Positions 2 to 40,581 of a stretch of DNA of 64,000 bases are shown piece after piece. The first letter of the stretch is position 1; every line of letters starts with the position of its first letter. The translations under genes were made by a program, and so were the position numbers. The notes beneath the pieces were generated by a model, which was not told the DNA's origin, did no database searches, and was given only the letters and a program-made list of their open reading frames with translations. The DNA lies in the NCBI GenBank assembly GCA_030537195.1, contig JAUNOK010000002.1:21632-85631 (forward strand), read 5' to 3'. The DNA is from Eubacteriales bacterium. GTDB taxonomy: Bacteria > Bacillota > Clostridia > Lachnospirales > Lachnospiraceae.

Positions 2-1306
2 CTTATTTATCTGCTTTTTGGACGTTCTATAGTTACAAGGGCTGTAAAGAAAAGATTTAACTCAATAGAAGAATCCTATAAGAAATCCCTTTCACAGGAC
101 GAAGCTATTCTTAATGAGGTTAAAGATAAGGATATATACATTTATAACCAGTTCCATTATCTTAGTAACCATGAAGGCTATCCTGTATATAAGAATACGG
201 ATATAGAATTTTATTCAATAGGTGAGGAAGGTCTTGAGGCACAGCTTATAGAACTTGAAAAGGCTGAGAAATTCATTTTCATGGAATATCATGCTATTGA
301 AGAAGCTTCAAGCTTTGACAGAATTAAAGATGTTCTTATAAGAAAAGCCGCAGCAGGCGTTGAAGTCCGATTATTCTATGATGATGTCGGAAGTATCTTC
401 TTCCTTAACAAGGATTTCATCAAAGAAATGCGTGCAAATGGCATTGACTGCCGTGTATTCAATCCAATTAAGCTTGCCTTCAACATGTTTATGAATAACC
501 GTGACCACAGAAAGATAACTGTAATTGACGGTAAAGTCGGCTTCACTGGAGGCTACAATCTTGCCGATGAGTACTTTAATATTACCCATCCATACGGCGA
601 GTGGAAAGATACAGGTCTTAAACTCACTGGTGATGCTGTTAAGACTCTTACTATGCTGTTTCTTTCTATGTGGAATTCTATTAAAAAAACTGATGAGCCT
701 CAGGACGATTATGTCAAATATATCAAAGCCTCTGATTACGGCTACAAGGCTGTTAATAACAACCAGTATGTTGTTCCTTACGCTGACAGCCCGCTTAATA
801 ATAACAGGGTTGCTGAAAATGTTTATCTTAATATCATTAAGAGTGCAAAGCATTACCTTTACATTACAACACCATACCTTCTTATCACAGAAGAGATGTC
901 AAGAGAACTTGCAATGGCTGCCATGCGTGGTGTTGATGTAAGAATCGTAACTCCTGGTATTCCAGATAAGAAGCTTACTTACAGCCTTACAAGATCATAT
1001 TATGCAGACCTTGTAAGATATGGTGTAAGAATATACGAATACACACCTGGTTTCATTCATGCAAAGCAGTGGGTTAGCGACGGAGAAGTGTCCATTGTCG
1101 GTACAATCAACATGGATTTCAGAAGCCTTTATCTTCACTTTGAGAATGCAGCATATGTATACGGCAAGGAAACTGCTGCCGATGTACTTAATGATTTCTA
1201 CAACATTTTCAGAAGAAGCGAGGAAGTAACCGCCAAGTACATTAATAAGCCGAGAATCTTAAGAATCGGACAATGTATATTAAGACTGGTTGCACCTTTG
1301 TTCTAA
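2..1306 (+). CDS. cls: Cardiolipin synthase (phospholipase D superfamily), 5'-partial at the window edge
   Basis: The open frame runs from nt 2 (LIYLLFGRS...) and is continuous with track ORF 281..1306. It has two HKD motifs (HRKITVIDGKVGFTGGYN and HAKQWVSDGEVSIVGTINMD). Confidence 0.85.
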   Translation, partial: LIYLLFGRSIVTRAVKKRFNSIEESYKKSLSQDEAILNEVKDKDIYIYNQFHYLSNHEGYPVYKNTDIEFYSIGEEGLEAQLIELEKAEKFIFMEYHAIEEASSFDRIKDVLIRKAAAGVEVRLFYDDVGSIFFLNKDFIKEMRANGIDCRVFNPIKLAFNMFMNNRDHRKITVIDGKVGFTGGYNLADEYFNITHPYGEWKDTGLKLTGDAVKTLTMLFLSMWNSIKKTDEPQDDYVKYIKASDYGYKAVNNNQYVVPYADSPLNNNRVAENVYLNIIKSAKHYLYITTPYLLITEEMSRELAMAAMRGVDVRIVTPGIPDKKLTYSLTRSYYADLVRYGVRIYEYTPGFIHAKQWVSDGEVSIVGTINMDFRSLYLHFENAAYVYGKETAADVLNDFYNIFRRSEEVTAKYINKPRILRIGQCILRLVAPLF

Positions 1307-1316
1307 TTGGTGTATA

Positions 1317-1827
1317 TTCATATTTGTTATTGCGTGTGTGAGATTCAGCTTTTAATTATTTTGTCTGTGTCTGGCATATATGTTTGAACGATTCGTTAGA
1401 ATTGTGTTAATTTATCAGGTGTTATTTTCGGCTCATATGTTTGTGTACATTCGCCAGATGAACACTTTCACCTAGATGTACGCCTGAGACACACTCTCTC
1501 ATGAGTGTTTCGCTTAGTGGGAGTAAATGCTGCTATCTACAAAGTTTATTACGGTGCGGTAAATCAAACGCGCTCCGCTTGAACGTGCTTTCCCGCACCG
1601 CCCTTAAGTATATAGCGGCATTAACTCCCACACAGCTCACAATAAATCGAGAGTGTGTCTCAGACGAACAGCTTCGGAGAAAGTGTACAGCTGTCGAATG
1701 AACATAAACAATCGAAAGAGCCGAAAATAATACCGATAAATTAGCAATTCTTAACGTGTTCAAACACATATGCCAGACACAGATAAAATGACTACAATAA
1801 TGACTCACACACGCAATAACAAATATC
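1317..1827. repeat. ~510-bp imperfect palindrome (arms ~250 bp, ~80% complementary, nested sub-palindromes) filling the cls/Nudix intergenic gap
   Basis: 1321 atttgttattgcgtgtgtgag is the reverse complement of ...ctcacacacgcaataacaaatat at 1803-1825. 1363 gtctgtgtctggcatatatgtttgaacg pairs with 1755 cgtgttcaaacacatatgccagacacagat. 1483 gcctgagacacactctc pairs with 1649 gagagtgtgtctcagacg. The central ggtgcgg...ccgcacc lies at ~1553-1597. Confidence 0.7.
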
Positions 1828-1857
1828 AAGTTAATAAACATTTAACAAGGAGATATA

Positions 1858-2730
1858 ATGAAAGAAGAAACTGTAACCGTGAAAATCGATCACCCCTTAG
1901 GAAGTACTGATGACGATAACCCCTCGGTGGTCTATCCTATTAATTGTGGCTATGTAGACACTGAAAGAACTGTCGGTTTTTCCGAGCTTGATAAACAGAA
2001 GGTTTATCTGTTAGGTGTTGATGTTGCTGTTGACGAATATGTTGGCGAGCTTATTGCTATTGCAAGAAGACGTGATGATTCTGAGACTGTCTGGATAATT
2101 GCTCCTGAGAATATTACTTACACAATCCAGCAGATTGAAGAAATGATATATTTTGAAGAACAGTACTATGACAGCTATGTAGAGATAGTAGACGAAGAAT
2201 TATGGGATGCCTATGATGAGAATGAGCAGCTTCTCGGCTTTGATCTGAAGAGAAGTCAGGCTAAATCATTACCAGAAGGTGTATATCATGTAATTGTCAA
2301 TGTATATACTATGACTAAGGATGGCAAGCTTCTTACTACCGAGCGTTCCCGTAATAAAACTTACCCATTAAAATGGGAAGTTACAGGAGGTTCTATTCTT
2401 AAAGGTGAGACTGCTGCCGGGGGGGCTATCCGCGAGTTATATGAGGAGACTGGCATTAAGATTACAACCGATGACCTTATTCCTCTTTACAGCTATGTAG
2501 ACAAGCCTAAGCATGCCATATATCACAGTTACCTTAATTTAATAAAAGAAGAAGTCCATGTCACCCTTCAGGAAGGAGAGACCATGGACTACATGTATGT
2601 TCCATATAAGGAATTTGATGAACTTGTTAATTCTGACAGATTCGTTCCGTCAGAACAGCGACGCTATAAGAATCAGGCTGTTTTTACGATGCTTTCACGA
2701 TTCATTCCTGATTCAGCAGCTTCTACATAA
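1858..2730 (+). CDS. Fusion protein: N-terminal inorganic-pyrophosphatase-like domain plus C-terminal Nudix hydrolase
   Basis: The N-terminus (KIDHPLGS...YPINCGYV...FEEQYYDS) resembles the small Firmicute PPase family. The C-terminus carries a Nudix box (GGSILKGETAAGGAIRELYEETGI). RBS aaggagat lies upstream. Confidence 0.7.
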   Translation: MKEETVTVKIDHPLGSTDDDNPSVVYPINCGYVDTERTVGFSELDKQKVYLLGVDVAVDEYVGELIAIARRRDDSETVWIIAPENITYTIQQIEEMIYFEEQYYDSYVEIVDEELWDAYDENEQLLGFDLKRSQAKSLPEGVYHVIVNVYTMTKDGKLLTTERSRNKTYPLKWEVTGGSILKGETAAGGAIRELYEETGIKITTDDLIPLYSYVDKPKHAIYHSYLNLIKEEVHVTLQEGETMDYMYVPYKEFDELVNSDRFVPSEQRRYKNQAVFTMLSRFIPDSAAST

Positions 2731-5179: not shown

Positions 5180-6175
5180 TTATCTCATCTTCTGAACATT
5201 TTTCTTTCTCATTAACAACACACCAATACCTATAAGTACCAAACCTATTGCACAGCCAGACACTAAAGTAATGAAAAATATATTTCCATTAATACAAATA
5301 TTGGTCCTCCAGTCAGACAGGTTCATATGGCTTAATGTAAGCACATTATTTTTATAAATAATAAACTCAAGAAAATCATTAGCAAAAACAAACCATAGCA
5401 CTGATATTATTGTACTAATTCCAGCTCTTATCAGTCCATGGACAGGAAGATATCTGATTACAAGAAATACAAGCCATACACCAAGCAAAAGTACGGCTGC
5501 AACTGTATATCCGTCCTTCATGCCTACGAAACCTGAATGATAATACACTATAAACATAGTAAGGAACAGCCACAAAGTATCCCATGTCATTGTTATAAGT
5601 GCTTTCTTGTCACTAAGTACCGGTGGAAGTGATACAAGACATATCACAATTGGAAAGAGTACTATTGATATTCCGAATACTGTAGGTATAGCCCATAACA
5701 GGAAGTTGCCTCCACCATTCATCTGGTCAACGAAAAACAATATAAGCATAAGTGAAACAACTCCGGCAAGAATACATTTTAACAGACGGTTATTAGTGGA
5801 CATAAGCGGAACTACCGTAAGTGCTGCAACAAGCATCATAGAGGCAGTAACAACCGAAAATACGCCTAATCCCATGCCTGTAGCAAGCTGTACTATAAAT
5901 GTAATGACAATCGGAAGCAGAAGTATTGCCGCAATCACAACTCCAGCCTTGTATGCTGCATTACGCTCTTTTTTTGCATGTCTTTCAAGTACACCCTTTG
6001 ATTCTTTTGCAAGTACCTCATCGACGTTGTTTTCTTTTAATTCGTCATATATTTTCTGACAGTCACTGCAGCCTGCCAGATGCTTCTCAACAAATCTGCG
6101 GCTTTCTTCGCTGCATGCATTGTCATAATAAAGGGGCAGTAAATCCTGCACGATATTACATTCTTTATTACTCAT
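5180..6175 (-). CDS. Anti-sigma factor with N-terminal zinc-finger (zf-HC2-like) and polytopic membrane domain
   Basis: CSEESRRFVEKHLAGCSDCQ motif at the N-terminus, then about 8 predicted TM helices. Immediately downstream of the ECF sigma gene. Confidence 0.7.
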   Translation of the reverse strand: MSNKECNIVQDLLPLYYDNACSEESRRFVEKHLAGCSDCQKIYDELKENNVDEVLAKESKGVLERHAKKERNAAYKAGVVIAAILLLPIVITFIVQLATGMGLGVFSVVTASMMLVAALTVVPLMSTNNRLLKCILAGVVSLMLILFFVDQMNGGGNFLLWAIPTVFGISIVLFPIVICLVSLPPVLSDKKALITMTWDTLWLFLTMFIVYYHSGFVGMKDGYTVAAVLLLGVWLVFLVIRYLPVHGLIRAGISTIISVLWFVFANDFLEFIIYKNNVLTLSHMNLSDWRTNICINGNIFFITLVSGCAIGLVLIGIGVLLMRKKNVQKMR

Positions 6176-6177
6176 AT

Positions 6178-6633
6178 CTAATTAATCCTTTCTTTTATTT
6201 TCAGTCTGGCCCTATGATAAGTTACTCTGGCCCAGTTCTCAGTTTTTCCAAATACCATTCCAATCTGTGCAAATGTGAGTTCTCCGAAAACTCTTAACTG
6301 AAATACTTCCTTATACGGCTCTGGAAGTTCATGAAGAACCATATGAATCCGCAAAGCAGAATCCGTATCCGATACTTTATCCACCAGATCAGCCGTCTGC
6401 TGTGGCAATGTCTCGTCAAGTTCAGAAAATTTCTTATTCTTCCGGCACTCATCAATTGCCAGATTCTTTGCTATACTGCACAGCCATGTGAGCTCACCCG
6501 CCTTGCCTTCGTATTGTCTCTTGGCGGTCATGGCTTTGTAAAAAGTATTCTGCGTGATTTCCTCAGCGAGAGACTGATTCTTTACTATCGTAAACACATA
6601 AGAATACACCTGCATATAATAGGAATTGTACAA
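6178..6633 (-). CDS. ECF (sigma-24 type) RNA polymerase sigma factor
   Basis: Region 2 (LAEEITQNTFYKA) and region 4 (ELTFAQIGMVFGKTENWARVTYHRA) are present. The 5' end lacks an ATG; the start is probably TTG or CTG a few codons after RBS ggaggtg. Confidence 0.8.
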   Translation of the reverse strand: MYNSYYMQVYSYVFTIVKNQSLAEEITQNTFYKAMTAKRQYEGKAGELTWLCSIAKNLAIDECRKNKKFSELDETLPQQTADLVDKVSDTDSALRIHMVLHELPEPYKEVFQLRVFGELTFAQIGMVFGKTENWARVTYHRARLKIKERIN

Positions 6634-31099: not shown

Positions 31100-32902
31100 A
31101 TGGGAAAGTTTGCGATTGAATGTCCGGTTTGCGGAAAATATGCGGAAGCAAGTACAGGATTTTTTTCCAAAAAGAAAATTGAATGTGCATGTGGAAATGT
31201 AATTAATGTTAGAACTGATAAGTATGCATCAAGAAAATGCGTACATTGTGGCAATCAGGTAATTTTCGATCAAACGAAGGGGGAAGATGCTTTATGTCCG
31301 GTTTGCCATGCAAAGATAAATACCATGGCAGACAATCAAAAGACACAGGAGTTTTCATGCGGACAGTGTGGCATTCGTTTGACAACGGTTACAAGTGCAA
31401 AAACATATGTGTGTCCGATATGCGATTTCGAAAATGATATTCAGGAACGCTTTATGTCAGAAAAAATTAAGAATGATGGTATGGCAAGCATCATAAAGTA
31501 TGAGGGAGATAATTCGACATTCATATGGAAGCATCCAATTGAGGATTTCAATTATGGTTCTCAGCTCATTGTTCATGAGAGTCAGGAAGCAATCTTCTTT
31601 AAGGATGGACAGGCATTAGATTTATTTGGACCAGGTCGTTATACATTAGAGACACAACAACTTCCATTGTTGGAAAAGACATATAGTTTGCCAACTGATA
31701 CCCAGAGAACATTTCATTCAGAGGTTTATTTTATAAATAAAACAGTTCAGATGGCTATTAAGTGGGGAACTCCAGATAAGGTTAGATTCATTGACCCGTT
31801 AACAGGAACACCCCTTGCTCTTGGAGCATCTGGTGAGATGAATATTCAAGTTTCTAATGCAAGAAAGCTTTTAATTAAGTTGGTTGGAACTATGAAAGGG
31901 ATTTCATGGGAAGAAGATCCCGAATTTACGAAATCCTTACAGTCATCATTCCGTCCGTTGATTGTAAACGCGGTAAAGACAAACCTTTCAGCAGTAATAA
32001 AAAATGAAGCAATCGATATTTTAGAGATAGATGAAAAACTGGATATAATCTCTGACAATTTACGTGAAAAAATATTGCCGGGATTAGAAGAATATGGTCT
32101 TACAGTACCTCAGTTTTATGTAACAAATATTGTTTTGCCAGAAGATGACCCTAACTTTAAGAGAATTAGGGAATTACATACAATCACACTTCAGACAAGA
32201 GTAATACAAGCGGAAGCAACCGTAAAAACAGTGCAGGCTCAGGCTCAGACTCAATACAGAATGGCAGAGGAGCAGAGCAAAGCCGCAATTGAAGCTGCTC
32301 ATAGAGAGGCTGAATTGCAACGTCAGACAACCGAAACTGAAATTGCGAAGATGAAAGCAGAGAGGGAGCTTATTGCGGCACAGGCAGCAGCACAGGCGAA
32401 ACGCATGGATGGTATTACTGAAGCTGAGATTATGCAGGCAAAGGGATACAATCAAAAGGATGTCCTTCAGGTAGATGTACAGAAGGCATATGCGGAAGCT
32501 ATCGGAAATATGGGACCAGCTATTTCCTCTGGTGGTGGAAGCGGCATAGTAGGTGATATGCTTGGCTTGGGGGTTGGAATGGCAGCTATGAATGCAGTAG
32601 CACCGCAGGTAGGCGGAATGATAAGTGGAATGGGAAACCAGATGAATCAGGCTATGAATAATGGTACAACTTTGCCATCATTTGCTGAACAGCAGACTAT
32701 GAATACAAATATAACTAGGGCAGTCAATGCTTCGAACACATGGGATTGTAAATGTGGCAATAGAGGAGTGATTGGCAATTTCTGTAATAACTGCGGAGCT
32801 AAGAAACCAGAGCCAGTATCAGCAACATGGGATTGTTCTTGTGGAAATAAGGGAATAATAGGAAACTTCTGCAATAACTGTGGTGCGAAGAGAGGAGAAT
32901 AA
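31100..32902 (+). CDS. Multi-zinc-ribbon protein fused to an SPFH/Band-7 domain (COG4260, B. subtilis YdjI-like) with coiled coil and tandem C-terminal zinc ribbons
   Basis: Five N-terminal CxxC...CxC/CxxC pairs. SPFH core (IIKYEGDNSTFIWKHPIEDFNYGSQLIVHESQEAIFF...AIKWGTP). QAQAQ coiled coil. Two repeats WDCxCGNxGxIGNFCNNCGAK. Confidence 0.75.
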   Translation: MGKFAIECPVCGKYAEASTGFFSKKKIECACGNVINVRTDKYASRKCVHCGNQVIFDQTKGEDALCPVCHAKINTMADNQKTQEFSCGQCGIRLTTVTSAKTYVCPICDFENDIQERFMSEKIKNDGMASIIKYEGDNSTFIWKHPIEDFNYGSQLIVHESQEAIFFKDGQALDLFGPGRYTLETQQLPLLEKTYSLPTDTQRTFHSEVYFINKTVQMAIKWGTPDKVRFIDPLTGTPLALGASGEMNIQVSNARKLLIKLVGTMKGISWEEDPEFTKSLQSSFRPLIVNAVKTNLSAVIKNEAIDILEIDEKLDIISDNLREKILPGLEEYGLTVPQFYVTNIVLPEDDPNFKRIRELHTITLQTRVIQAEATVKTVQAQAQTQYRMAEEQSKAAIEAAHREAELQRQTTETEIAKMKAERELIAAQAAAQAKRMDGITEAEIMQAKGYNQKDVLQVDVQKAYAEAIGNMGPAISSGGGSGIVGDMLGLGVGMAAMNAVAPQVGGMISGMGNQMNQAMNNGTTLPSFAEQQTMNTNITRAVNASNTWDCKCGNRGVIGNFCNNCGAKKPEPVSATWDCSCGNKGIIGNFCNNCGAKRGE

Positions 32903-32904
32903 AT

Positions 32905-33594
32905 ATGGGGCAAAATAATATTAGAGGATACATTGTTGATGCAATATTATTTGTTGTGTTTAGCGTCATTGCTTTTGCGGCACCATTTAAAATGACTGGA
33001 GTATTTTGGTTAGGATATATATTTGGTGTAATTGCAATAGTGTCACAAATATATTTTATAAAGATATCTTTTTTGAATGGTAAAGATGTAAAGAGTAAGT
33101 TTTATGGATTTCCTATAGCAAAGATAGGAGTGTTCTATCTTGGAATACAAGTTGGTTTGAGTTTGGCAGAATTTATTACTGCTGGATTCCTGCCAGTCTG
33201 GATAGCACTTATTGTTAATACGCTTATGATAGCATTTGCTGCGATTGGTACAATAGCTGCAGATGTAATGCGTAATGAAATTGTAAAGCAGGATGTTCAG
33301 ATAAAAATGAATGTAAAAAATATCCGTGCATTACAGTCTCAGACGGTTTCGTTTGTAGATATGTGCCAAGATGCGGATATAAAGAAGCAGTTGCAAGGGT
33401 TGGCAGATGATTTTAAATATAGTGATCCGGTATCATCGGAAGATACTCAAGAAATGGAAACAGAACTGAAATTCCTTGTAAACGAAATCCAGCGAGCACT
33501 TGTAGATGGGGATATGAAATCTGTTGAAAGCTTTTGTGTACGTGTGAAAGCTAGCTTGGCAGAGAGAAACAGAATTTGCAAGTTGGCGAAGTAG
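32905..33594 (+). CDS. Membrane protein with four N-terminal TM helices and ~100-aa cytoplasmic helical tail, translationally coupled to the SPFH gene
   Basis: Hydrophobic segments at about residues 10-30, 35-55, 70-95, 100-125. Stop/start are 2 nt from the upstream gene. No family recognised. Confidence 0.55.
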   Translation: MGQNNIRGYIVDAILFVVFSVIAFAAPFKMTGVFWLGYIFGVIAIVSQIYFIKISFLNGKDVKSKFYGFPIAKIGVFYLGIQVGLSLAEFITAGFLPVWIALIVNTLMIAFAAIGTIAADVMRNEIVKQDVQIKMNVKNIRALQSQTVSFVDMCQDADIKKQLQGLADDFKYSDPVSSEDTQEMETELKFLVNEIQRALVDGDMKSVESFCVRVKASLAERNRICKLAK

Positions 33595-33612
33595 GAGAAT
33601 TAAAGCATATGA

Positions 33613-34300
33613 AAAAATGCACTTGAAGAGATTAATAGTTTTTATAATGATGATCTGGTATGTAAATTAAAAAAGGCAGAGTATTTTGATAAAATTGCAG
33701 GAAGCAGAAAACTGGCAAAAGTGTATTACGATATCGAAAATAAAGTGGCCTTTTCCGGTGCAATAAATGAAAATATAACCATAATGCTTGATGAGGCAAA
33801 TAATAAGCAAAAAGAGGTATTTAACATACAGGCAGCAGATACAGGAAGTTTTTCAGAAGTTAAGGATATAATTGCGGTGATAGGGATTACAAAAGAGGCA
33901 GGAAGCTCTCTTATGAATGTTTTGCTATTTGCTGCAACTGCAATCGGAATTATCGGCACTGACGTTGTGAGGGATGAAGTACAGCATAAGGAAGTGAAAA
34001 TTGAGATAAACACAAGTAGCATGATGAAAATGCGAAATATGGTTGAAACATTGGTGGAAAGTGCTCAGATTCAGAAGCCAGAAGGGCTGTGCAGGAATTG
34101 GCAGCGGAGTTTAAGTTTAGTGATCCGGTGAGTAATGATGGTTTAAAAATTATTGAGATAGAAATAGAAAATTCAATGGAATAACTTCAAAAATGTGTTT
34201 TTAGTGACAATACAGAAGAAGTTATAGAAATGACCAAGAGGACAGTTGCATTGTTAATTGAAAGAAATCAGCAATGTAAACAGTATAAGAAAATATAATG
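33613..34300 (+). pseudogene. Decayed tandem partial duplicate of the 3' two-thirds of gene 32905..33594 (frameshifts and stops)
   Basis: LLFAATAIGIIGTDVVRDEVQHKEVKIEIN parallels LMIAFAAIGTIAADVMRNEIVKQDVQIKMN. After a frameshift, AVQELAAEFKFSDPVS parallels LQGLADDFKYSDPVS. The final segment ALLIERNQQCKQYKK parallels ASLAERNRICKLAK. Confidence 0.55.
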
Positions 34301-34309
34301 AGGTTACTT

Positions 34310-34951
34310 ATGGATAAAGGAATTGTTAGAGAAGTCCTTGAGAGAGGAAAGTACGAGATAGTATTAGAAAAAAGATTTAAAAAATACGCTTGGCGGTTCA
34401 AATTAAGTAATGGAACATCAGTGTACTGTGGAGATAATGAAAAAGTATGGACACAGGGAAAAGCTGGAGTCGATGTAAAACGGTTTCTTGATTTGAATTT
34501 ACCTATCATGTCTAACAATAAAGTTTTTATAGTATATGGGCATGATACAGCTGCGAAAGATGAACTTGTTCACATGCTGCACACTTGGGGAATTGATGCT
34601 TTAGCTATTGATGCCTTGCCTACACAGGGACGTACTATTATCGAACAATTGGAGCATTATATTCCGCAGACAAATTATGGGGTAGTATTGGCTACACCAG
34701 ATGACATTGCTTGTTCTAAAGAGAATCGCACTGTGATGCAGTGCAGGGCACGACAAAATGTTGTACTAGAATTAGGAATGCTTTTGTCAAAGTTAGGAAG
34801 GTCTCGCGTTGCGATTTTGATGAAGGAATGTGAAAATTTTGAAATTCCATCAGATATTGATGGAATTCTTTATATTAGATTTTCCAATTCTGTAACAGAA
34901 GCGGAGAACAGTTTAAAAAGAGAATTGAATTCACATGGATATAATATTTAG
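34310..34951 (+). CDS. TIR-like nucleotide-binding domain protein (COG4271 / CAP12-PycTIR-type TIR-like) with ~70-aa N-terminal domain of unknown function
   Basis: KVFIVYGHD...GRTIIEQLE...GVVLATPDD...ARQNVVLELGMLLSKLGRSRVAILMK...IPSDIDGILYI matches the conserved pattern of this TIR-like family. Start at ATG 34310 after RBS tgagg. Confidence 0.7.
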   Translation: MDKGIVREVLERGKYEIVLEKRFKKYAWRFKLSNGTSVYCGDNEKVWTQGKAGVDVKRFLDLNLPIMSNNKVFIVYGHDTAAKDELVHMLHTWGIDALAIDALPTQGRTIIEQLEHYIPQTNYGVVLATPDDIACSKENRTVMQCRARQNVVLELGMLLSKLGRSRVAILMKECENFEIPSDIDGILYIRFSNSVTEAENSLKRELNSHGYNI

Positions 34952-34975
34952 TAATAATACGAGGGGAGAAGAAAA

Positions 34976-37351
34976 ATGACAATCTTTAGATGCAAAATGT
35001 GTGGCGGTGATTTGGAAATTGCAGAAGGAATTTCTTTCTGCACCTGTGAGTTTTGTGGTACAAAGCAGACAATTCCAACTGTAAAAGATGAAGATCTGCA
35101 GACATTGTTTAACAGGGCTAATGTTCTGCGTATGAAGTCTGAGTTTGATAAGGCGGCAGAGATATATGAAAAGATTCTGTTAAAAAATGAAAGTGAAGCA
35201 GAGGCATACTGGGGATTGATACTCTGTAAGTACGGAATAGAGTATGTGGAGGATCCGGCTACATTCAAGCGCGTGCCTACTTGTCATAGAGCTTCTTATG
35301 ATCCAGTGGTGTCTGATGAAGATTATAAGAGTGCGCTAAATTATGCTGATGCGGTTCAGCGAAACATTTATAAACAGCAAGCTGCTGAAATTGACACAAT
35401 ACAGAAAGGCATTTTAGCACTTGCGCAAAAGGAAGATCCCTACGATATTTTTATCTGCTACAAAGAAACAGATGAATTAGGACAGAGAACACAGGACAGT
35501 GCGATTGCCAATGATATCTATCATCAGTTGACTATAGAAGGCTTTAAGGTGTTCTATGCGGCAATTACGCTGGAAGATAAGCTTGGCACAGAGTATGAGC
35601 CATATATCTTTTCTGCCTTAAATACAGCAAAAGTTATGCTTTCTATAGGCACAAAACCGGAATACTTCAATGCTGTATGGGTTAAAAACGAGTGGTCCAG
35701 ATTCTTGAAAATCATGAAAAAGGATCGTAGTAAACTTCTTATTCCTTGCTATCGCGAAATGGATCCTTATGAGCTTCCAGAGGAGTTCGCCCATCTGCAG
35801 GCACAAGATATGAGTAAGATCGGATTTATCAATGACATTGTGCGTGGTATCAAGAAGGTGATCACCAAAGATTCGCCTAAAACACAGAGTCAGGAAACTG
35901 TAGTTGTACAGCAGGGCGGTTCCGGAACAACCGTAAATGCGCAAATAAAGCGTGGTAATATGGCTCTTGAGGATTGCGATTGGGATAGGGCAGAAAGCTT
36001 TTTTGAAGAGGCGTTAAATCTTGATCCAGAATGTGCAGAGGCGTATCTTGGTCTTTATATGGTAGAACAAGAATTGCCATATATGTTGGATGTACAAGAC
36101 TCATATATATATGATGATGATTATTTTACACATCATCGCTATTGGAAACGCGTGAAACAGTATGCTACAGGAAACCTTGCTAAAACACTAAATAAATGGG
36201 ATCGCATGCGAAGTGCACGACTTCAAAGAGAAAAGGATGATGAGTTTAGAAAAAAGGATGCTGAGCGCAGAGAAGCGGAACAGAAAAAGAAGATAGCTGA
36301 AGATGATAGAAAGAAAAAACTGGAAGTGATTAGACCATTGCAAGAGCAATTGCGAGAAATTGCTGAAGAGGAACGGGAAGAGCTGGAAAAGTTGAATGCG
36401 AATGCAAAAGCGGCATTGGAAATCCTTCAGAATGCGAAGTCGCATGAAAAAACAGAGGTTCAGGAATTTCACAAGTTGGAAGAATTGATTTCATCAAAAA
36501 AAGCAGAGCTATTAGAAATGGGATTTTTAAAGCGAAAAGAAAAGAAAGAATTAAAATCACAAATTGAAAACCTTAGTGAAAATTTATTGAAAGCAAAAAA
36601 TAAAGTTTCCGAAGCAGACGCTAGTATTATTCGATTGAAAAATCAAGCAGAGAAAGCCGAGAAACATATTAAGGAATACAGTGAAAAAGTTGTGAATGGT
36701 AAAAAGAAAAAGATTTTGGAGCAGATATTCAGAATTTTAGAGCTAGATTTTGACGGAGATAAGGTTAAATTTGGTTCTTATAAGAAAGGAGAGGAGGAAA
36801 AAGAACCAATTGAATGGCTTGTATTGGAAATATCGGATAAAGGGATTTTTTTGCTTGCTAAACATATAATTGATACAAAAAAATACCATAATAAGATGGA
36901 TGGCTCTATAACATGGGAGACATGTGACTTGCGGAAGTGGTTGAATAGTGAATTTCTGAATTCAGCATTTGATGATAGTCAGCGAATGATGATTGCACAT
37001 ACGAAGTGTCATACTGATGATAATCCGATGTATGAAACCGAAGGAGGAAATGATACGAAAGATCAGATTTTTCTTCTTAGTATAGATGAAGTAGAGAAGT
37101 ATTTTCCTTCAGATAGTGATATTGAAGAAAAGTTAGAAAACTACGGTTTTGGTAGAAGCCGGTGGTGGCTGCGCTCCCCTGGCGAAAGTAGCAATTACGC
37201 TGCGGGTGTTTATGATGACGGCTCGGTCGACTACGATGGCTGCGAGGTCAACTACCAGCTTAAAAGCGGCTGGGAGGAAGACTATAGTGACCCGGTTTAC
37301 TATATTTATGATTGTGTGCGTCCCGCTTTGTGGATTAATCTGGAATCATGA
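34976..37351 (+). CDS. 791-aa multidomain protein: N-terminal zinc ribbon, TPR-like repeats, TIR domain, long charged coiled coil, C-terminal DUF6273-like domain
   Basis: CKMCGG...CTCEFCG. TIR core DIFICYKETDE...KVFYAAITLE...SALNTAKVMLSIGT...WVKNEWSRF. KEKKELK-type charged helix. C-terminus IEWLVLE...TWETCDLRKWLNSEFLNSAF...WWLRSPG...CVRPALWINL typical of DUF6273. RBS gagggga lies upstream. Confidence 0.75.
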   Translation: MTIFRCKMCGGDLEIAEGISFCTCEFCGTKQTIPTVKDEDLQTLFNRANVLRMKSEFDKAAEIYEKILLKNESEAEAYWGLILCKYGIEYVEDPATFKRVPTCHRASYDPVVSDEDYKSALNYADAVQRNIYKQQAAEIDTIQKGILALAQKEDPYDIFICYKETDELGQRTQDSAIANDIYHQLTIEGFKVFYAAITLEDKLGTEYEPYIFSALNTAKVMLSIGTKPEYFNAVWVKNEWSRFLKIMKKDRSKLLIPCYREMDPYELPEEFAHLQAQDMSKIGFINDIVRGIKKVITKDSPKTQSQETVVVQQGGSGTTVNAQIKRGNMALEDCDWDRAESFFEEALNLDPECAEAYLGLYMVEQELPYMLDVQDSYIYDDDYFTHHRYWKRVKQYATGNLAKTLNKWDRMRSARLQREKDDEFRKKDAERREAEQKKKIAEDDRKKKLEVIRPLQEQLREIAEEEREELEKLNANAKAALEILQNAKSHEKTEVQEFHKLEELISSKKAELLEMGFLKRKEKKELKSQIENLSENLLKAKNKVSEADASIIRLKNQAEKAEKHIKEYSEKVVNGKKKKILEQIFRILELDFDGDKVKFGSYKKGEEEKEPIEWLVLEISDKGIFLLAKHIIDTKKYHNKMDGSITWETCDLRKWLNSEFLNSAFDDSQRMMIAHTKCHTDDNPMYETEGGNDTKDQIFLLSIDEVEKYFPSDSDIEEKLENYGFGRSRWWLRSPGESSNYAAGVYDDGSVDYDGCEVNYQLKSGWEEDYSDPVYYIYDCVRPALWINLES

Positions 37352-38669
37352 TTCTTTATATCTGAAATCAACCACTCAGCGCCATAGGTGCAATCCTTCT
37401 TCCAAGGGGAAGGTGGCACGCGGTAGCGTGACGGATGGGGAACTTTAAGCCACCGACAGGCGGTCAAGTGAAGTTTTTACTATGTGTTCTCCATTATCCT
37501 AAATATGTGATATCAGGGGATATTAATTTAATTTGTGATGAGGTAGGTAATTTGAGTAATTATGTATGGTGTGAATAGTCATGGAACGAAGATAAAGAAT
37601 TAAAGGTCGTAAACAAGGCTAAAGATTTGTGTTCCTATGTTATGAATGTAGAAAAGAAATCTCCCAAAGTATTATCGTTATACATTTGTGAGCCATTTAC
37701 AGAATTTATCATTGTCGGTGATTGAAACATATTATCCGGGCAAATGATGTTTTGCCCAAAAGGGTGATACCATCACGATGGAGAACGATGCATTTTACCT
37801 AAACAGTACGAACTGATAGAGCCATCCAGATAATGGATTGTCAGAACTTGCTTGGTGCTTGGATGAAAAGTGAGAGGAAGAGATTACAACCGTAGGGCTT
37901 AATCAGGGAATTTGATTGAATGGGTAGTCAGCTGGTGGTGGTTGTAATCCCTGTTTTTATATTGACAGGTTGCAAAACGAATTTACCTTTCAAAACAGTA
38001 AAACACAGATAAGTAGTTGCCTTTAACATGAAGCTGTGAGAATATAATTATAGTTATTTGTTTTATATTTTAATTCCTATGTAGGAGTTTGGTTGATTTC
38101 TCTTTAAGATGTTAAGAGAAAACGGAAGAGTCGTGTCTTCAGAGTTATTTGTAATATTCATATAAATGATTGTGAAGACACGGCATGAGCTGCCGCGAGC
38201 AGTAACCGGTATGCCAGTGGGCAAAAATGGACGTGAAGTGTGAAAACACAAATAAAATGGTGGAGAGGGCAGTAAGATGAGTTGCGAATCATCGAGCTGC
38301 TTTTTTCGTTGCAAAGTTTCTAAATGTCGGAACATAAATATATCCCCGACAAACCAATAACTTCTCCCCGCTAAAATTTCTCAAAAGCTGAAATCTGATA
38401 TAATAATTTTAGTTAGATAAAAATGGAGTAACGAATGATTGAAAAAGTTGTATTCATGAACATGTCTGCAGACCATAACGGAAGATGGAATAATTGCAAA
38501 AATACAATAAAAAGTCCTGTCTATGTATATCAAGCAACAGGAGCAATGAAAGCGTTTCAAAACTACAGAACAGCAATTAATGAATAACAGAACCACGCAA
38601 AATGTATATTTTAATCACTTCGCTAAATCACCGTTTAACGAAGTGATTACCACATGACATAGTCTACTA

Positions 38670-39470
38670 TTAAAAGGCGTACCATTCGCACCTTCTCAAA
38701 TCAGTATAAGGCTTGCTTTTTCTTATTCGCTTGCTTTCCATCAAGTCCATATCCGCATATATTATCTGCTCATTATCATCAGCCTTTACAATCACATTAC
38801 CTGATGCATCAACCAATATTGATTCTCCTGAGAATTCCATTTTATCCTCAGTTCCAACTCTGTTGCACATTGCAATTGCGACGCTGTTCTGGAATGCCTG
38901 CACACGAAGTTCCCATTCAAACATTTCAGATGGTTCTGATTTGGTATTTATAGTAGGAATAAGTATTAAGTCCGCGTCCATTAAAGTTTCTGTACGGATA
39001 CTTTCAGGATAATGTCTGTCAAAGCATACAACAATTCCAATCTTGCCAAAAGCTGTGTCGAACACCTTAAATCCATCATCAGATGGTGTATAATAATCCT
39101 GCTCATAAAATTGTTCTGCCTGTGCAACATGTACCATTTTCTGTATTCCCTGAATTTCACCCTTATGATTAATAAAAATGCTTGCATCATATGCTTTTCC
39201 ATTTTCATTCAGATATATATTAGGGACTGCCGATATACCATATTTTTCGCATGTATCTTGAAACTGATGAGCTTCTCTGGAATCAATTGTCAGACAATAT
39301 GCCGACACATCTTTCTTTTCATATTGTGGAAAGAATTCTGTAAGCTGAACCTCTGGAAATAATATTAAGTCTGCACCGTTTTCCGCTGCCTGACGGATAT
39401 ATTCTATACTCTTATTAAGATTAGCTTCCATATTCCCTTCATTTTTCATCTGTGCTAATGCAATTCGCAT
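38670..39470 (-). CDS. Carbon-nitrogen hydrolase (nitrilase superfamily) protein
   Basis: MRIALAQM...ADLILFPE...catalytic triad context (E, K, C in VAIAMCNRVG). Confidence 0.8.
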   Translation of the reverse strand: MRIALAQMKNEGNMEANLNKSIEYIRQAAENGADLILFPEVQLTEFFPQYEKKDVSAYCLTIDSREAHQFQDTCEKYGISAVPNIYLNENGKAYDASIFINHKGEIQGIQKMVHVAQAEQFYEQDYYTPSDDGFKVFDTAFGKIGIVVCFDRHYPESIRTETLMDADLILIPTINTKSEPSEMFEWELRVQAFQNSVAIAMCNRVGTEDKMEFSGESILVDASGNVIVKADDNEQIIYADMDLMESKRIRKSKPYTDLRRCEWYAF

Positions 39471-39627
39471 AATTCCTCCTCTTCCCGATATGTTTTCTTG
39501 ATAATATCAACATATATTTTTCTAATTAAAAAGTCAAGAAGTACTAAACATTACCCTCAATTTGATTTACACCTATATGCCATCATGCTATAATAATTTT
39601 ATATTATTTATTGTAAAGGCAGACATC

Positions 39628-40581
39628 ATGAACAAAACATTAGATGCAACACATTTAAAAATTATAGCAATTATTTCTATGGTTATTGACCATTTTGCAT
39701 GGGGATTCTTAGATTTCTATTCGTGGCAGGGTCAGGTTCTTCATGTATGCGGCAGACTCACAATACCAATCATGTGTTTCTTTATTGCACAGGGATACAG
39801 CAAGACATCAAACCTTCACCGCTATATTGGACGAATGATTATATTCTGGCTTTTGTCCATCGTACCTTTTTATCTATTTTTTCATGAAGAATACGGATTC
39901 AGACAGAATATTATATTCGATCTGTTACTAGGCTTACTTTTCCTTGTCTGTCTTAATAGCAGGAAACTTGCTGTATGGCACAAGGTTTTAATCAGTATAT
40001 TGTTATTCACAGTATCTCTCGTCATTGGCGGCTGGCCGGTTCTTCCTATGGTTTACATAGCAATCTTTTATTTTATTAAGAACTGGAAAAAACAGGTGAC
40101 ATGGTTCTGCATCGCTACTGTATCACTAGTTTTATTCATGATGGCTGCAATCAGCCTGAATCAGATATATCATTTTTCTCACTATAACTGGATATGGTAC
40201 GAAAAAACATATTTCCTTGGATTCATGCTTGCTCTTCCATTGCTTGCCAGATATAACGGTCAGAAAGGCCGTTATCCTATTGGAAAATATTTCTTTTACT
40301 GCTTTTATCCAATACATTTTCTGGTTTTGTATGCATTTAAACAAATGTATCATATATACTCAGGCTATACAGTATATGTAGCTTTACAGGTTTTGACACT
40401 TATACTTGCAATGTATGTTATATATAAAATGAATGTTTCAACAACGTCCATCCAAAGCACAGACTGGCAGTATTCTTTTCGGATGTGCAACAATTATTTA
40501 CATGTATGGATTTCTTCTGGAAGTGACAACTACTACTCTCAGTGGTGTTTATCAGGCTGTAAAAGTCGAATATTTTGGTGA
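39628..40581 (+). CDS. TraX-family membrane protein (C-terminal ~50 aa probably not genuine)
   Basis: LKIIAIISMVIDHFAW is the TraX signature. The 3' tail overlaps the next ORF by 149 nt in another frame and looks like out-of-frame translation (Cys/Trp-rich). Confidence 0.55.
   Translation: MNKTLDATHLKIIAIISMVIDHFAWGFLDFYSWQGQVLHVCGRLTIPIMCFFIAQGYSKTSNLHRYIGRMIIFWLLSIVPFYLFFHEEYGFRQNIIFDLLLGLLFLVCLNSRKLAVWHKVLISILLFTVSLVIGGWPVLPMVYIAIFYFIKNWKKQVTWFCIATVSLVLFMMAAISLNQIYHFSHYNWIWYEKTYFLGFMLALPLLARYNGQKGRYPIGKYFFYCFYPIHFLVLYAFKQMYHIYSGYTVYVALQVLTLILAMYVIYKMNVSTTSIQSTDWQYSFRMCNNYLHVWISSGSDNYYSQWCLSGCKSRIFW

Follow-up and report, generated by a model that had tools for sequence, protein, structure and literature searches.

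A previously undescribed non-coding foldback hairpin family in the gut bacterium Lachnospira eligens, with an interior that is inverted between strains

The ERIC/IRU, Correia (CREE), BOX, RUP and bcr1 repeats of bacteria are small non-coding imperfect palindromes that form long hairpins, are cotranscribed with flanking genes and occupy short spacers that separate or precede genes. The element described here resembles them in being a non-coding imperfect palindrome with a long hairpin fold and in its position, as well as in its strain-variable presence and in having size variants that arise by internal deletion or insertion. ERIC repeats are best conserved around their central repeat, as the present element is at its apex. 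The differences are that our principal copy, between the genes for cardiolipin synthase (cls) and a NUDIX-domain protein, is several times larger (513 bp), that only three loci of the family were found, with one per 627-kb replicon, that it has neither a sequence relationship to these repeats nor an Rfam match and that its termini are not common to the copies. To our knowledge, internal flip/flop inversion has not been described for ERIC- or Correia-type families. MITEs offer a second comparison: like them, the element has terminal inverted repeats, no coding capacity, a length below 600 bp and both filled and empty sites in related genomes. Unlike them, it lacks a clear target-site duplication, common terminal repeats, a cognate transposase (in 342 kb) and multiple copies.

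Three further systems bear on the inversion. Invertons, such as fimS, hin, the Bacteroides polysaccharide promoters and the RecV targets of C. difficile, share with our family repeats of 23 to 40 nt around a segment of a few hundred bp, the occurrence of both orientations and a position directly upstream of a gene. However, our family has no nearby invertase and no identified internal promoter, its invertible segment is itself a palindrome and its orientation changes look rare and are tied to diverged alleles. The inverted terminal repeats of parvoviruses and the telomeres of poxviruses are likewise imperfect palindromes found as two inverted-complement isomers, with the asymmetry residing in unpaired bases near the apex. 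Those isomers come from hairpin-primed replication of linear genomes, whereas the palindrome here lies within a circular replicon of a bacterium, with its exchange points in the outer stem. Finally, template switching at quasi-palindromes, as presented in PMC8604942 and PMC7202029, predicts enzyme-free inversion of the spacer between two short imperfect inverted repeats as a rare event and also predicts hairpin-stimulated deletions. Most described cases are small, with spacers that measure a few to tens of bases, whereas the structured interior here is 250–370 bp long and its inversion recurs in one family.

The element occupies positions 1317–1829 of the window (the whole 64-kb stretch of DNA that was analysed) and is an imperfect palindrome of 513 bp between cls (3′ part, 281–1306, plus strand) and the Nudix gene (1858–2730, plus strand; ribosome-binding site AAGGAG at 1846–1851). 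It takes up 513 of the 551 nt that separate the cls stop (1306) from the Nudix start (1858), beginning 10 nt past the stop codon and ending 28 nt ahead of the start codon; this spacing, with both genes on the same strand, argues for cotranscription. Gapped alignment of 1317–1570 with the reverse complement of 1571–1829 gave 203 matches, 38 mismatches and 31 gap columns, corresponding to an arm identity of 84% over aligned bases (75% with gaps counted). The longest perfect arm-to-arm identity, read from this alignment, was 23 nt. An initial annotation of the window had reported a giant palindrome filling the cls/Nudix spacer, with arms about 80% identical, and this was borne out, although its right end had to be moved from 1827 to 1829. 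A nested sub-palindrome reported as perfect proved to be so for 15 nt only (CTGAGACACACTCTC / GAGAGTGTGTCTCAG), beyond which the right arm reads ...CTCAGAC and not ...CTCAGGC.

The self-reverse-complement local score of the element was 384, compared with 24.4 ± 4.2 (maximum, 42) for 200 shuffled sequences, and a repeat search covered 1317–1829 with five nested inverted-repeat blocks. Terminal inverted repeats of 26 nt, 96% complementary, lie at 1317–1342 and 1804–1829 and have the same orientation in all strains. The predicted RNA minimum free energies were −256.3 kcal/mol (z = −19.7) for the plus strand and −261.2 kcal/mol (z = −23.3) for the minus strand, and folding with DNA parameters yielded −157.6 kcal/mol (z = −22.1). 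All three folds had the shape of one long bulged hairpin. The single bulged hairpin of about 250 bp that the initial annotation had expected of a transcript was therefore recovered on both strands (z about −20 to −23).

The open reading frames inside the element (1501–1701, plus strand; 1533–1841, minus strand), already dismissed as mirror artefacts in the initial annotation, were rejected as coding sequences. They are mirror images, their exact translations are absent from a collection of 15 billion proteins and the spacer carries no gene call in other assemblies. Comparison with Rfam yielded no family: the whole window gave no match at the gathering threshold, and a scan of the element region (1000–2200) at E ≤ 10 gave three weak matches with E-values of 0.16–3.6 and scores far under each family's gathering threshold. 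No tRNA or tmRNA was found in the 64-kb window, and phage and viral collections contained no match to the element or its apex core. Inside the element, a search for promoters and terminators returned no convincing candidate but only weak consensus matches, the better of which lie in the outer part that does not invert. The literature on invertons or MITEs in L. eligens and Lachnospiraceae provided nothing relevant.

Comparison with related genomes identifies the 513-bp element as a clade-specific insertion of L. eligens. The orthologous locus of strain ATCC 27750 matches the window over exactly 1317–1829. The cls–Nudix spacer is empty in the relatives L026 and L027–L032; where the Nudix proteins are 81% and 68% identical it is only 70 and 83 nt long, and the flanking GGTGTATATT...AAACATTTAA is kept. 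No target-site duplication is visible at the cls/Nudix copy against the empty sites of L026 and L027, which are themselves diverged relatives; the initial annotation had likewise seen none.

Between strains, the interior of the element is inverted. Aligned with ATCC 27750 in the syntenic orientation, the element gave 415 matches, 77 mismatches and 42 gaps; with the whole element inverted, the same comparison gave 483 matches, 27 mismatches and 6 gaps. Breakpoint mapping and an exhaustive breakpoint search found only two orientation states of the 368-bp segment 1390–1757, with the same breakpoints in 13 full-length loci. The window has the minority orientation (W), and ATCC 27750 and most assemblies have the other (A). 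The segment is bounded by a 40-nt inverted repeat (1350–1389, 88% complementary to 1758–1797), and the crossover always falls in one 9-bp block of this repeat, 1381–1389 (TGTTTGAAC) on the left and 1758–1766 (GTTCAAACA) on the right. By eye, the right junction (ACGTGTT-CA-AACACAT) resembles a short dyad with an asymmetric dinucleotide at its centre. L007 and L012 have the orientation opposite to that of L017 and L021 in flanks that are 99.8–100% identical. Both orientations are again present in the window/L022 lineage, so that both states occur in each of two diverged flank lineages. The Nudix and DegV proteins of the window have no record, and its MATE protein led to a 1.7-kb contig alone, which added no further strains to the lineage of the window. 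An interior inversion between strains is not visible from one sequence.

The flipped alleles form a clade with mutations of its own (1389 C>T and others). Because of this, and because only 1 of 35 assemblies is flipped at the third locus of the family (see below), the indirect evidence suggests that flipping is rare, not rapid, on the timescale of strain divergence. Gene-conversion patches were considered as the source of the differences in flipped alleles and rejected, since most are ordinary C>T and G>A changes. All three inversions detected resolve to the innermost block of about 9 nt of the bounding repeat and not to longer identical blocks; by a rough estimate, the joint chance of this under uniform exchange is about 0.04–0.05. 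This hints at a preferred exchange point and counts against the explanation that we favour below. The two flipped family members do not have related crossover cores (TGTTTGAAC in one, GTCTGCATC in the other).

Deletions of three independent types were also found: the right arm is lost in L024/L025, the left arm in L023 and the centre in L010/L013. Read by eye, the deletion junctions resemble short direct repeats. Contig ends inside the element were considered, and rejected, as a sign of mixed orientations. The second member of the family, which is not flipped, also ends a contig at its apex, and the breaks thus reflect the difficulty of assembling palindromes. In the replicon of ATCC 27750, the annotation of 342 kb (1–250 kb and 300–392 kb) lists neither a recombinase nor a transposase, none was found among 20 open reading frames scanned from window-specific segments and there is no recombinase gene within about 90 kb of the element.

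The sequence of the element is unusually well conserved. Between lineages it is 96.7% identical, and third codon positions of the same lineages are 70–73% identical; the last ≈ 100 nt of cls share the high identity of the element. In the still more distant L023 lineage, identity over the arm that survives and the apex is 82.5%, compared with about 65% at third codon positions. A junction block of 61 nt, which adjoins the Nudix gene in the A orientation, is perfectly conserved between that orientation and the L023 lineage (p ≤ 0.003 even against a background of 86% identity). In the window this block lies on the cls side (1358–1418, minus strand) and has two differences (1380 and 1405). A selfish or neutral repeat would not be expected to be so well conserved, which counts against our favoured explanation; the conservation could reflect host function or recent recombinational spread. 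Strain-level substitutions along the long stem looked neutral with respect to pairing and showed no selection for it, and the mismatches between the arms had no G·U bias (6 versus 4 of 38).

The foldback family has at least three loci, of which cls/Nudix is the largest known copy. The second member (276 bp) lies between a HAD gene and gltX and is insertion-polymorphic: in L017 and L007 it is placed 1 nt past the stop of the HAD gene, and in ATCC 27750 and L016 the site is empty. It has a possible TTAA/ATTAA duplication at an ambiguous junction. The third member (≈ 328 bp) lies between an ABC-transporter gene and a cell-wall hydrolase gene, upstream of the latter, and was present in 35 of 35 sampled spacers. 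It is flipped in L048 only, and its bounding inverted repeat is 23 nt long. At this locus promoter-like matches occur only beyond the element, so that transcription in the direction of the ABC gene would pass through the element. The three members have the apex in common and differ in their termini and outer stems, and their neighbouring genes show no common functional theme.

A high-copy MITE was rejected on the searches for further copies. BLAST of the 64-kb window found no other copy, PLSDB, which includes the complete 627-kb replicon in two strains, gave the cls/Nudix locus as sole match and neither local BLAST of 342 kb of the replicon nor a covariance-model search of about 490 kb revealed another. 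The cls/Nudix copy has terminal inverted repeats, and filled and empty sites exist in relatives, but the many copies with common termini of a MITE occur neither in the window nor in the complete replicon. The copies found amount to one locus in that replicon and three loci in all. In sequence terms, a conserved centre with differing termini is the opposite of a transposase-mobilised MITE, and this also counts against the explanation favoured below, as do the lack of a clear target-site duplication at the cls/Nudix copy, of a convincing promoter or terminator inside the element and of selection for pairing along the long stem.

What the members share is a hairpin of ≈ 125 nt at the apex (1511–1636; CGCTTAGT...ACACAGC), with covarying stems and conserved asymmetric internal loops. 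Across the three loci, 10 of its 46 pairs have changes on both sides. Paired positions make up 98.3% of the alignment cells, a value reached in none of 500 shuffles and far above the 30–44% obtained with slid registers. The asymmetry of the apex is itself conserved (alignment score, 188 in one orientation versus 70 in the other), and its 22-nt tip (1564–1585, plus strand; TCAAACGCGCTCCGCTTGAACG) is near-invariant in the family, varying only at two central pyrimidines. In the majority orientation, the strand with the same sense as the closest gene downstream (Nudix, gltX or the ABC-transporter gene) pairs better than its complement (98.3% versus 92.8% of cells) and has the lower consensus energy (−54.9 versus −42.0 kcal/mol), a strand difference that rests on about 6 versus 3 independent G·U positions. 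DNA-level maintenance of the palindrome produces the same covariation signal. The apex is a candidate new structured RNA or DNA motif absent from Rfam.

The initial annotation had offered three identities for the element, each partly supported by these results and none touching the main point, the inversion of the interior. A MITE-like non-autonomous element comes closest, in that the insertion is clade-specific and a smaller relative is present or absent by strain; the low copy number and the sharing of the centre in place of the ends do not fit. A long-hairpin structured non-coding RNA finds some support for the apex but none for the 250-bp stem as a whole, the covariation being confined to the 10 apical pairs, with no selection for pairing along the long outer stem. 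The element is a recombination site as well, but in a sense that had not been expected, its interior having been inverted between strains by exchange in its own inverted repeats.

Our best explanation, to which we assign a probability of roughly one half, is a low-copy foldback repeat family that is cotranscribed with its neighbours and whose own inverted repeats give rise to rare spontaneous inversions. Each copy would consist of the conserved ≈ 125-nt apex hairpin and locus-specific outer stems, placed in a short spacer directly upstream of the ribosome-binding site of a gene. Transcription would include the neighbouring genes, with the element between cistrons at cls/Nudix and probably in a 5′ leader at the ABC-transporter locus, and the long RNA hairpin could serve as a processing or stability element or as a barrier to transcription. 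Since the element is a quasi-palindrome, its inverted repeats would occasionally recombine, by homologous exchange or by template switching during replication, and thereby flip the interior to give flip/flop isomers, or remove an arm or the centre. PMC8604942 reports that template switching between short inverted repeats inverts the intervening spacer. The inversions would then be rare by-products of the structure, and no programmed switch would be involved.

A programmed inverton is the obvious competitor for the inversion itself. In that case a site-specific recombinase encoded elsewhere in the genome would flip the 368-bp segment at GTT-TG-AAC cores. This would change either the sequence adjoining the Nudix gene, where the conserved junction block would hold a promoter or operator, or the transcribed strand of the asymmetric apex. 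Inverted repeats of 27–40 nt around the segment give an inverton-like geometry, and there are two discrete states. Two independent events confined the exchange to the same 9 bp, and the other flipped family member shows an analogous one. The dyad with its asymmetric central dinucleotide, seen by eye at the right junction, and the perfect conservation of the 61-nt junction-spanning block in a distant lineage point the same way, and trans-acting invertases do occur in Clostridia, RecV of C. difficile being one. We nevertheless consider this unlikely: no recombinase gene was found within about 90 kb, in 342 kb of the replicon or among the 20 scanned reading frames, and the crossover cores of the two flipped members have no common sequence. 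Flipping is rare, as judged from the accumulated mutations and single clade of the flipped alleles and the 1 in 35 at the third locus. The flipped segment is itself quasi-palindromic, so that flipping changes little, and it contains no convincing promoter, although its asymmetric apex is an oriented feature; the deletion variants show an intact switch to be dispensable, and the contig breaks reflect palindrome assembly and not mixed orientations. A DNA hairpin or cruciform site would account for both movement and inversion. The hairpin, extruded or single-stranded and with a sequence-specific apex, would be the substrate of a DNA enzyme such as an HUH nuclease or a recombinase of the Xer or integron type that works on folded single strands. 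This enzyme would mobilise the family and also make the flip/flop isomers, as at the hairpin termini of parvoviruses and poxviruses. Flip/flop isomers are indeed a hallmark of hairpin-based replication or resolution. The strong DNA fold (−157.6 kcal/mol, z = −22), the covarying stems with extrahelical or asymmetric conserved features, typical of folded-DNA recombination sites, and the insertion at AT-rich sites directly past stop codons, with no clear duplication, all suit such a site. It is very improbable all the same, because no candidate enzyme gene was found in the neighbourhood of the copies or in the 342 kb of replicon covered, the breakpoints fall within ordinary blocks of inverted repeat, away from the apex, and the phage and viral collections gave no match. 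The likely replication terminus is also about 37 kb away from the element, which is therefore not of dif type; a dif/Xer site at the terminus was rejected on this distance from the GC-skew switch, the resemblance to dif being only AT-rich similarity.

Selection on the host side could instead have shaped the apex as a structured RNA, a cis-acting leader or small RNA of ≈ 125 nt whose structure and loop sequences matter and which is transcribed in the same sense as the closest gene downstream; the stem would then have grown outward secondarily into the giant palindrome. The 10 covarying pairs, the conserved asymmetric internal loops, the invariant 22-nt tip over three loci, the better pairing of the sense strand in the majority orientation and a conservation well over neutral speak for this. 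We hold it to be doubtful, given that the strand difference comes from so few G·U positions (about 6 versus 3), that one member is present or absent by strain, that the three neighbour genes have no functional theme and that in some strains, that of the window among them, the apex is on the opposite strand with no obvious consequence. The absence of an Rfam family match also counts against it. Furthermore, according to PMC8794818 and PMC8604942, arm-to-arm correction at the DNA level can also keep a palindrome paired. There is next to no chance that the inversions are mis-assemblies caused by the palindrome. Several metagenome contigs do end inside family palindromes, and L014 is a probable chimera. 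However, the longest perfect arm-to-arm identity of 23 nt is shorter than typical final assembly k-mers, each orientation recurs across different projects and assemblers, linked mutations of their own mark the flipped alleles and complete and isolate genomes agree with the metagenome contigs.

A more far-reaching reading, which we think distinctly unlikely, is that of an invertible cassette in which the flipped item is not a promoter but the conserved, asymmetric ≈ 125-nt hairpin, and the perfectly conserved 61-nt block is a recombination and control site for a recombinase encoded elsewhere. If this were true, inversion would select which of two complementary hairpins with different loops is shown, whether in the mRNA of the adjacent gene (Nudix, or ABC transporter as opposed to hydrolase) or on the leading as opposed to the lagging DNA strand. 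The result would be a heritable two-state regulator made of structured nucleic acid, and the flipping of a hairpin in place of a promoter would represent a hitherto undescribed principle of regulation.

Bacteria do not usually maintain long palindromes stably. The present one, of 513 bp, persists at a constant site in a common human gut commensal and is conserved far above neutral sites. In assemblies of gut metagenomes the family, which goes unannotated, causes contigs to break or become chimeric, and pipelines that call invertons could flag the element as a false or unusual inverton. With inversions, arm loss and centre loss side by side, it offers a natural system in which to study the evolution of quasi-palindromes, whether by template switching or by recombination between inverted repeats.

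A single imperfect palindrome, at 1317-1829, lies in the 551-nt spacer that separates the stop codon of cls (1306) from the start of the NUDIX gene (1858). When the left arm was aligned, with gaps, to the reverse complement of the right arm, aligned bases were 84% identical (203 matches and 38 mismatches, plus 31 gap columns). The local score of the sequence against its own reverse complement was 384, as compared with 24 ± 4 in shuffles, and a repeat search found five nested inverted-repeat blocks. Both RNA strands and the DNA were predicted to fold into one long bulged hairpin (z = −19.7, −23.3 and −22.1, respectively). The giant palindrome proposed in the initial annotation is thus real, and both RNA strands are predicted to form its single hairpin; the coordinates given were correct to within 2 nt, and one sub-palindrome described as perfect is mismatched at its end. 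The internal ORFs, dismissed there as mirror artefacts, were indeed never called as genes and are missing from a collection of 15 billion proteins. Searches for Rfam families, tRNAs and tmRNAs gave no match.

An orthologous locus (ABC transporters, cls, element, NUDIX, DegV, MBL-fold hydrolase, MATE) on the 627-kb second replicon of Lachnospira (Eubacterium) eligens ATCC 27750 matches the element over exactly 1317-1829. A 21-nt pattern, run against collections of genomes and metagenomes, hit 21 loci (homologous loci and contigs carry L-numbers), 18 of which were the cls/NUDIX locus of L. eligens-like genomes. The cls–NUDIX gap is only 70 nt in L026 and 83 nt in L. pectinoschiza (NUDIX proteins 81% and 68% identical), and both short spacers retain the flanking motifs GGTGTATATT and AAACATTTAA. 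The palindrome is therefore an insertion or expansion confined to the L. eligens clade; comparison with the short-spacer relatives revealed no clear target-site duplication. The NUDIX protein (1858-2730) has an N-terminal extension of ≈ 110 residues that in some homologues matches the inorganic pyrophosphatase family PF00719.

The whole element aligned with ATCC 27750 in inverted orientation with 483 matches, 27 mismatches and 6 gaps, versus 415, 77 and 42 in the syntenic orientation; the outer ≈ 70 bp on each side matched in the syntenic orientation only. Among 13 full-length loci the interior (1390-1757) was found in just two states: W, as in the window, L007 and L012, and A, which ATCC 27750 shares with about 15 further loci. 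W was also seen in incomplete loci: L018, whose contig stops within the element; L014, probably a chimera; and L024/L025, which have lost the right arm. On the left, diagnostic positions 1380 and 1390 always bracketed the switch point; on the right, 1757 and 1767 did. The crossover therefore falls within TGTTTGAAC/GTTCAAACA, on the inner margin of the inverted repeat 1350-1389/1758-1797, and an exhaustive breakpoint search gave the same placement. Three rumen contigs (L005 3329-3350, L006 949-970 and L020 720-741; one labelled Prevotellaceae) match the inverted-repeat core of the window exactly over 22-23 nt (GTTCAAACATATATGCCAGACA) and share nothing else, which reflects either chance or a shared motif.

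Flanks were 99.8-100% identical among L007 and L012 (W) and L017 and L021 (A), which make up one lineage; a second, ≈ 11% diverged from it, comprises the window (W) and L022 (A). Identity between the two W interiors was 95.7%, versus 98.4% with the A mates of their own lineages. Since both states occur in each lineage and W interiors are closer to their A mates, the inversion has arisen at least twice at the same place. Mis-assembly is an unlikely source, because the arms match perfectly over at most 23 nt, independent projects repeatedly recovered both states and the flipped alleles have linked mutations of their own: L007 and L012 share 1389 C>T plus several further transitions. In this flipped allele of the ATCC-type lineage C>T and G>A transitions were over-represented (7/368 versus 1/800 in near-identical flanks), with changes equivalent to 1389, 1469, 1576 and 1750, one of which falls on the final base of the left crossover core.

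Two further family members were found. The second is a 276-bp palindrome in L017 and L007, 1 nt past a HAD hydrolase stop codon and upstream of gltX; the site is uninterrupted in ATCC 27750 and L016. The third, present in 35/35 sampled assemblies, is a ≈ 328-bp palindrome in a 434-nt spacer between divergent ABC/FtsX transporter and cell-wall hydrolase genes. It was found via the chimeric contig L014, where the Nudix-side arm and apex of the cls/Nudix element are fused, within 873-1320, to the third member's outer arm; the fusion arose either during assembly, at the shared apex, or by real recombination between elements. A covariance-model search of ≈ 490 kb gave no additional copy, nor were further copies present in the 64-kb window or the complete 627-kb replicon; Rfam, phage and plasmid collections held no sequence relatives. 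Three other GC-rich intergenic foldback hairpins of 140-230 nt (L037 49366-49598 and 49745-49970, L034 8085-8225; NC_012780.1 99366-99970 and 358084-358225) are unrelated in sequence to the family; two of them are alike, sharing ...CCGGYACTTAGTG...ACTTAGTACC...CGAGCGGGAGCG.

In L048, 23-nt repeats (CGGATTGGGAAYTKGTCTGCATC) bound an inverted interior of the third member, at about 54-302 of the spacer, with the exchange point in their innermost GTCTGCATC; the 34 other loci, including L043, have the common orientation. L043 and L048 differ at 7/3,212 flanking positions, and their spacers at 19 sites even after the best-fitting inversion. The flipped alleles are thus not fresh copies. Inversion recurs in the family, yet it is slow relative to strain divergence, because flipped alleles (L007/L012, L048) bear their own differences and only one is flipped versus 34 at the third locus. 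Deletions have removed the right arm in L024/L025, the left arm in L023 (derived from a full palindrome, because both terminal repeats are still present) and the centre in L010/L013. Their junctions resemble short direct repeats, as judged by eye, and these losses represent classical long-palindrome instability.

Between the two main lineages, identity is 96.7% for the element and 96% for the final 100 nt of cls, versus 72.8% (cls) and 70.3% (NUDIX) at third codon positions. Identity over 1200-1306 in cls compares with 87-88% further upstream, suggesting a recombination tract or constraint reaching into the gene. In comparison with the L023 lineage, which is more distant, identity is 82.5% over the surviving arm and apex (third codon positions ≈ 65%), with perfect blocks of 61, 27 and 26 nt, the longest spanning the right inversion junction (p ≤ 0.003). 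Such conservation may reflect either purifying selection on parts or recent spread of the segment by homologous recombination.

The likely replication terminus (GC-skew switch) lies ≈ 37 kb from the element: cumulative GC skew peaks at about 38000-40000, where gene orientation changes from mostly plus to mostly minus, probably the terminus of the 627-kb replicon. A putative defence island at 31100-37351 has no counterpart in the syntenic stretch of ATCC 27750. It has genes for an SPFH/Band_7 protein (31100-32902), an unknown protein (32905-33594), a TIR-domain protein of the CAP12/Pycsar type (34298-34951) and a protein that combines TIR_2, TPR and DUF6273 (34976-37351). A minus-strand gene pair for a zf-HC2 anti-sigma factor and an ECF-type sigma-70 factor (5180-6633) is window-specific, not being at the corresponding position in ATCC 27750.

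The best-supported reading, to which we assign a probability of roughly 0.5, is a low-copy foldback hairpin repeat with rare spontaneous inversions and deletions. It would probably be co-transcribed with neighbouring genes; at the third locus, promoter-like sites lie beyond the element, so that the ABC-gene transcript would have to traverse it. Its own inverted repeats would give rise to the rearrangements by homologous exchange or by template switching, which has been described at quasi-palindromes (PMC8604942). Only the central ≈ 125 nt (1511-1636) is common to all three members, outer stems and termini being different. Across 15 distinct apex sequences, 10 of 46 pairs changed on both sides and 98.3% of cells were paired, a value reached in 0/500 shuffles (slid registers, 30-44%). 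The internal loops and 22-nt tip TCAAACGCGCTYYGCTTGAACG are conserved, as is the asymmetry (alignment score 188 in one orientation versus 70 in the other). At each of the three loci, in the majority orientation, the strand that pairs better has the same sense as the closest downstream gene (98.3% versus 92.8% paired; consensus energy −54.9 versus −42.0 kcal/mol), a difference that rests on only ≈ 6 versus 3 independent G·U positions. The 250-bp stem as a whole shows no sign of RNA-type selection, because substitutions among strains broke pairs about as often as they restored them and arm mismatches had no G·U bias (6 versus 4 of 38). A structured RNA with a host function, built around the apex, is a less likely reading of the element.

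A programmed inverton that relies on a recombinase from elsewhere in the genome is more doubtful still: the annotation of 342 kb of the ATCC 27750 replicon lists no recombinase or transposase, none was found among 20 ORFs scanned from window-specific segments, and the third-member core GTCTGCATC is unrelated in sequence to TGTTTGAAC. Promoter and terminator scans of the element gave only weak matches. A hairpin-flipping switch is currently improbable. A folded-DNA recombination substrate, for all the stability of the predicted DNA fold, is very improbable.

As a low-copy foldback repeat, the element is functionally nearest to ERIC, Correia and BOX-type intergenic palindromes. It lacks both the shared termini and high copy number that define MITEs, and both the nearby recombinase and common core of invertons. 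We found no published description of the family. Its size, conserved centre with variable ends, strong conservation and recurrent flip/flop inversion are unusual for intergenic foldback repeats, and the natural flip/flop series and covarying apex should be of interest to specialists and merit follow-up.
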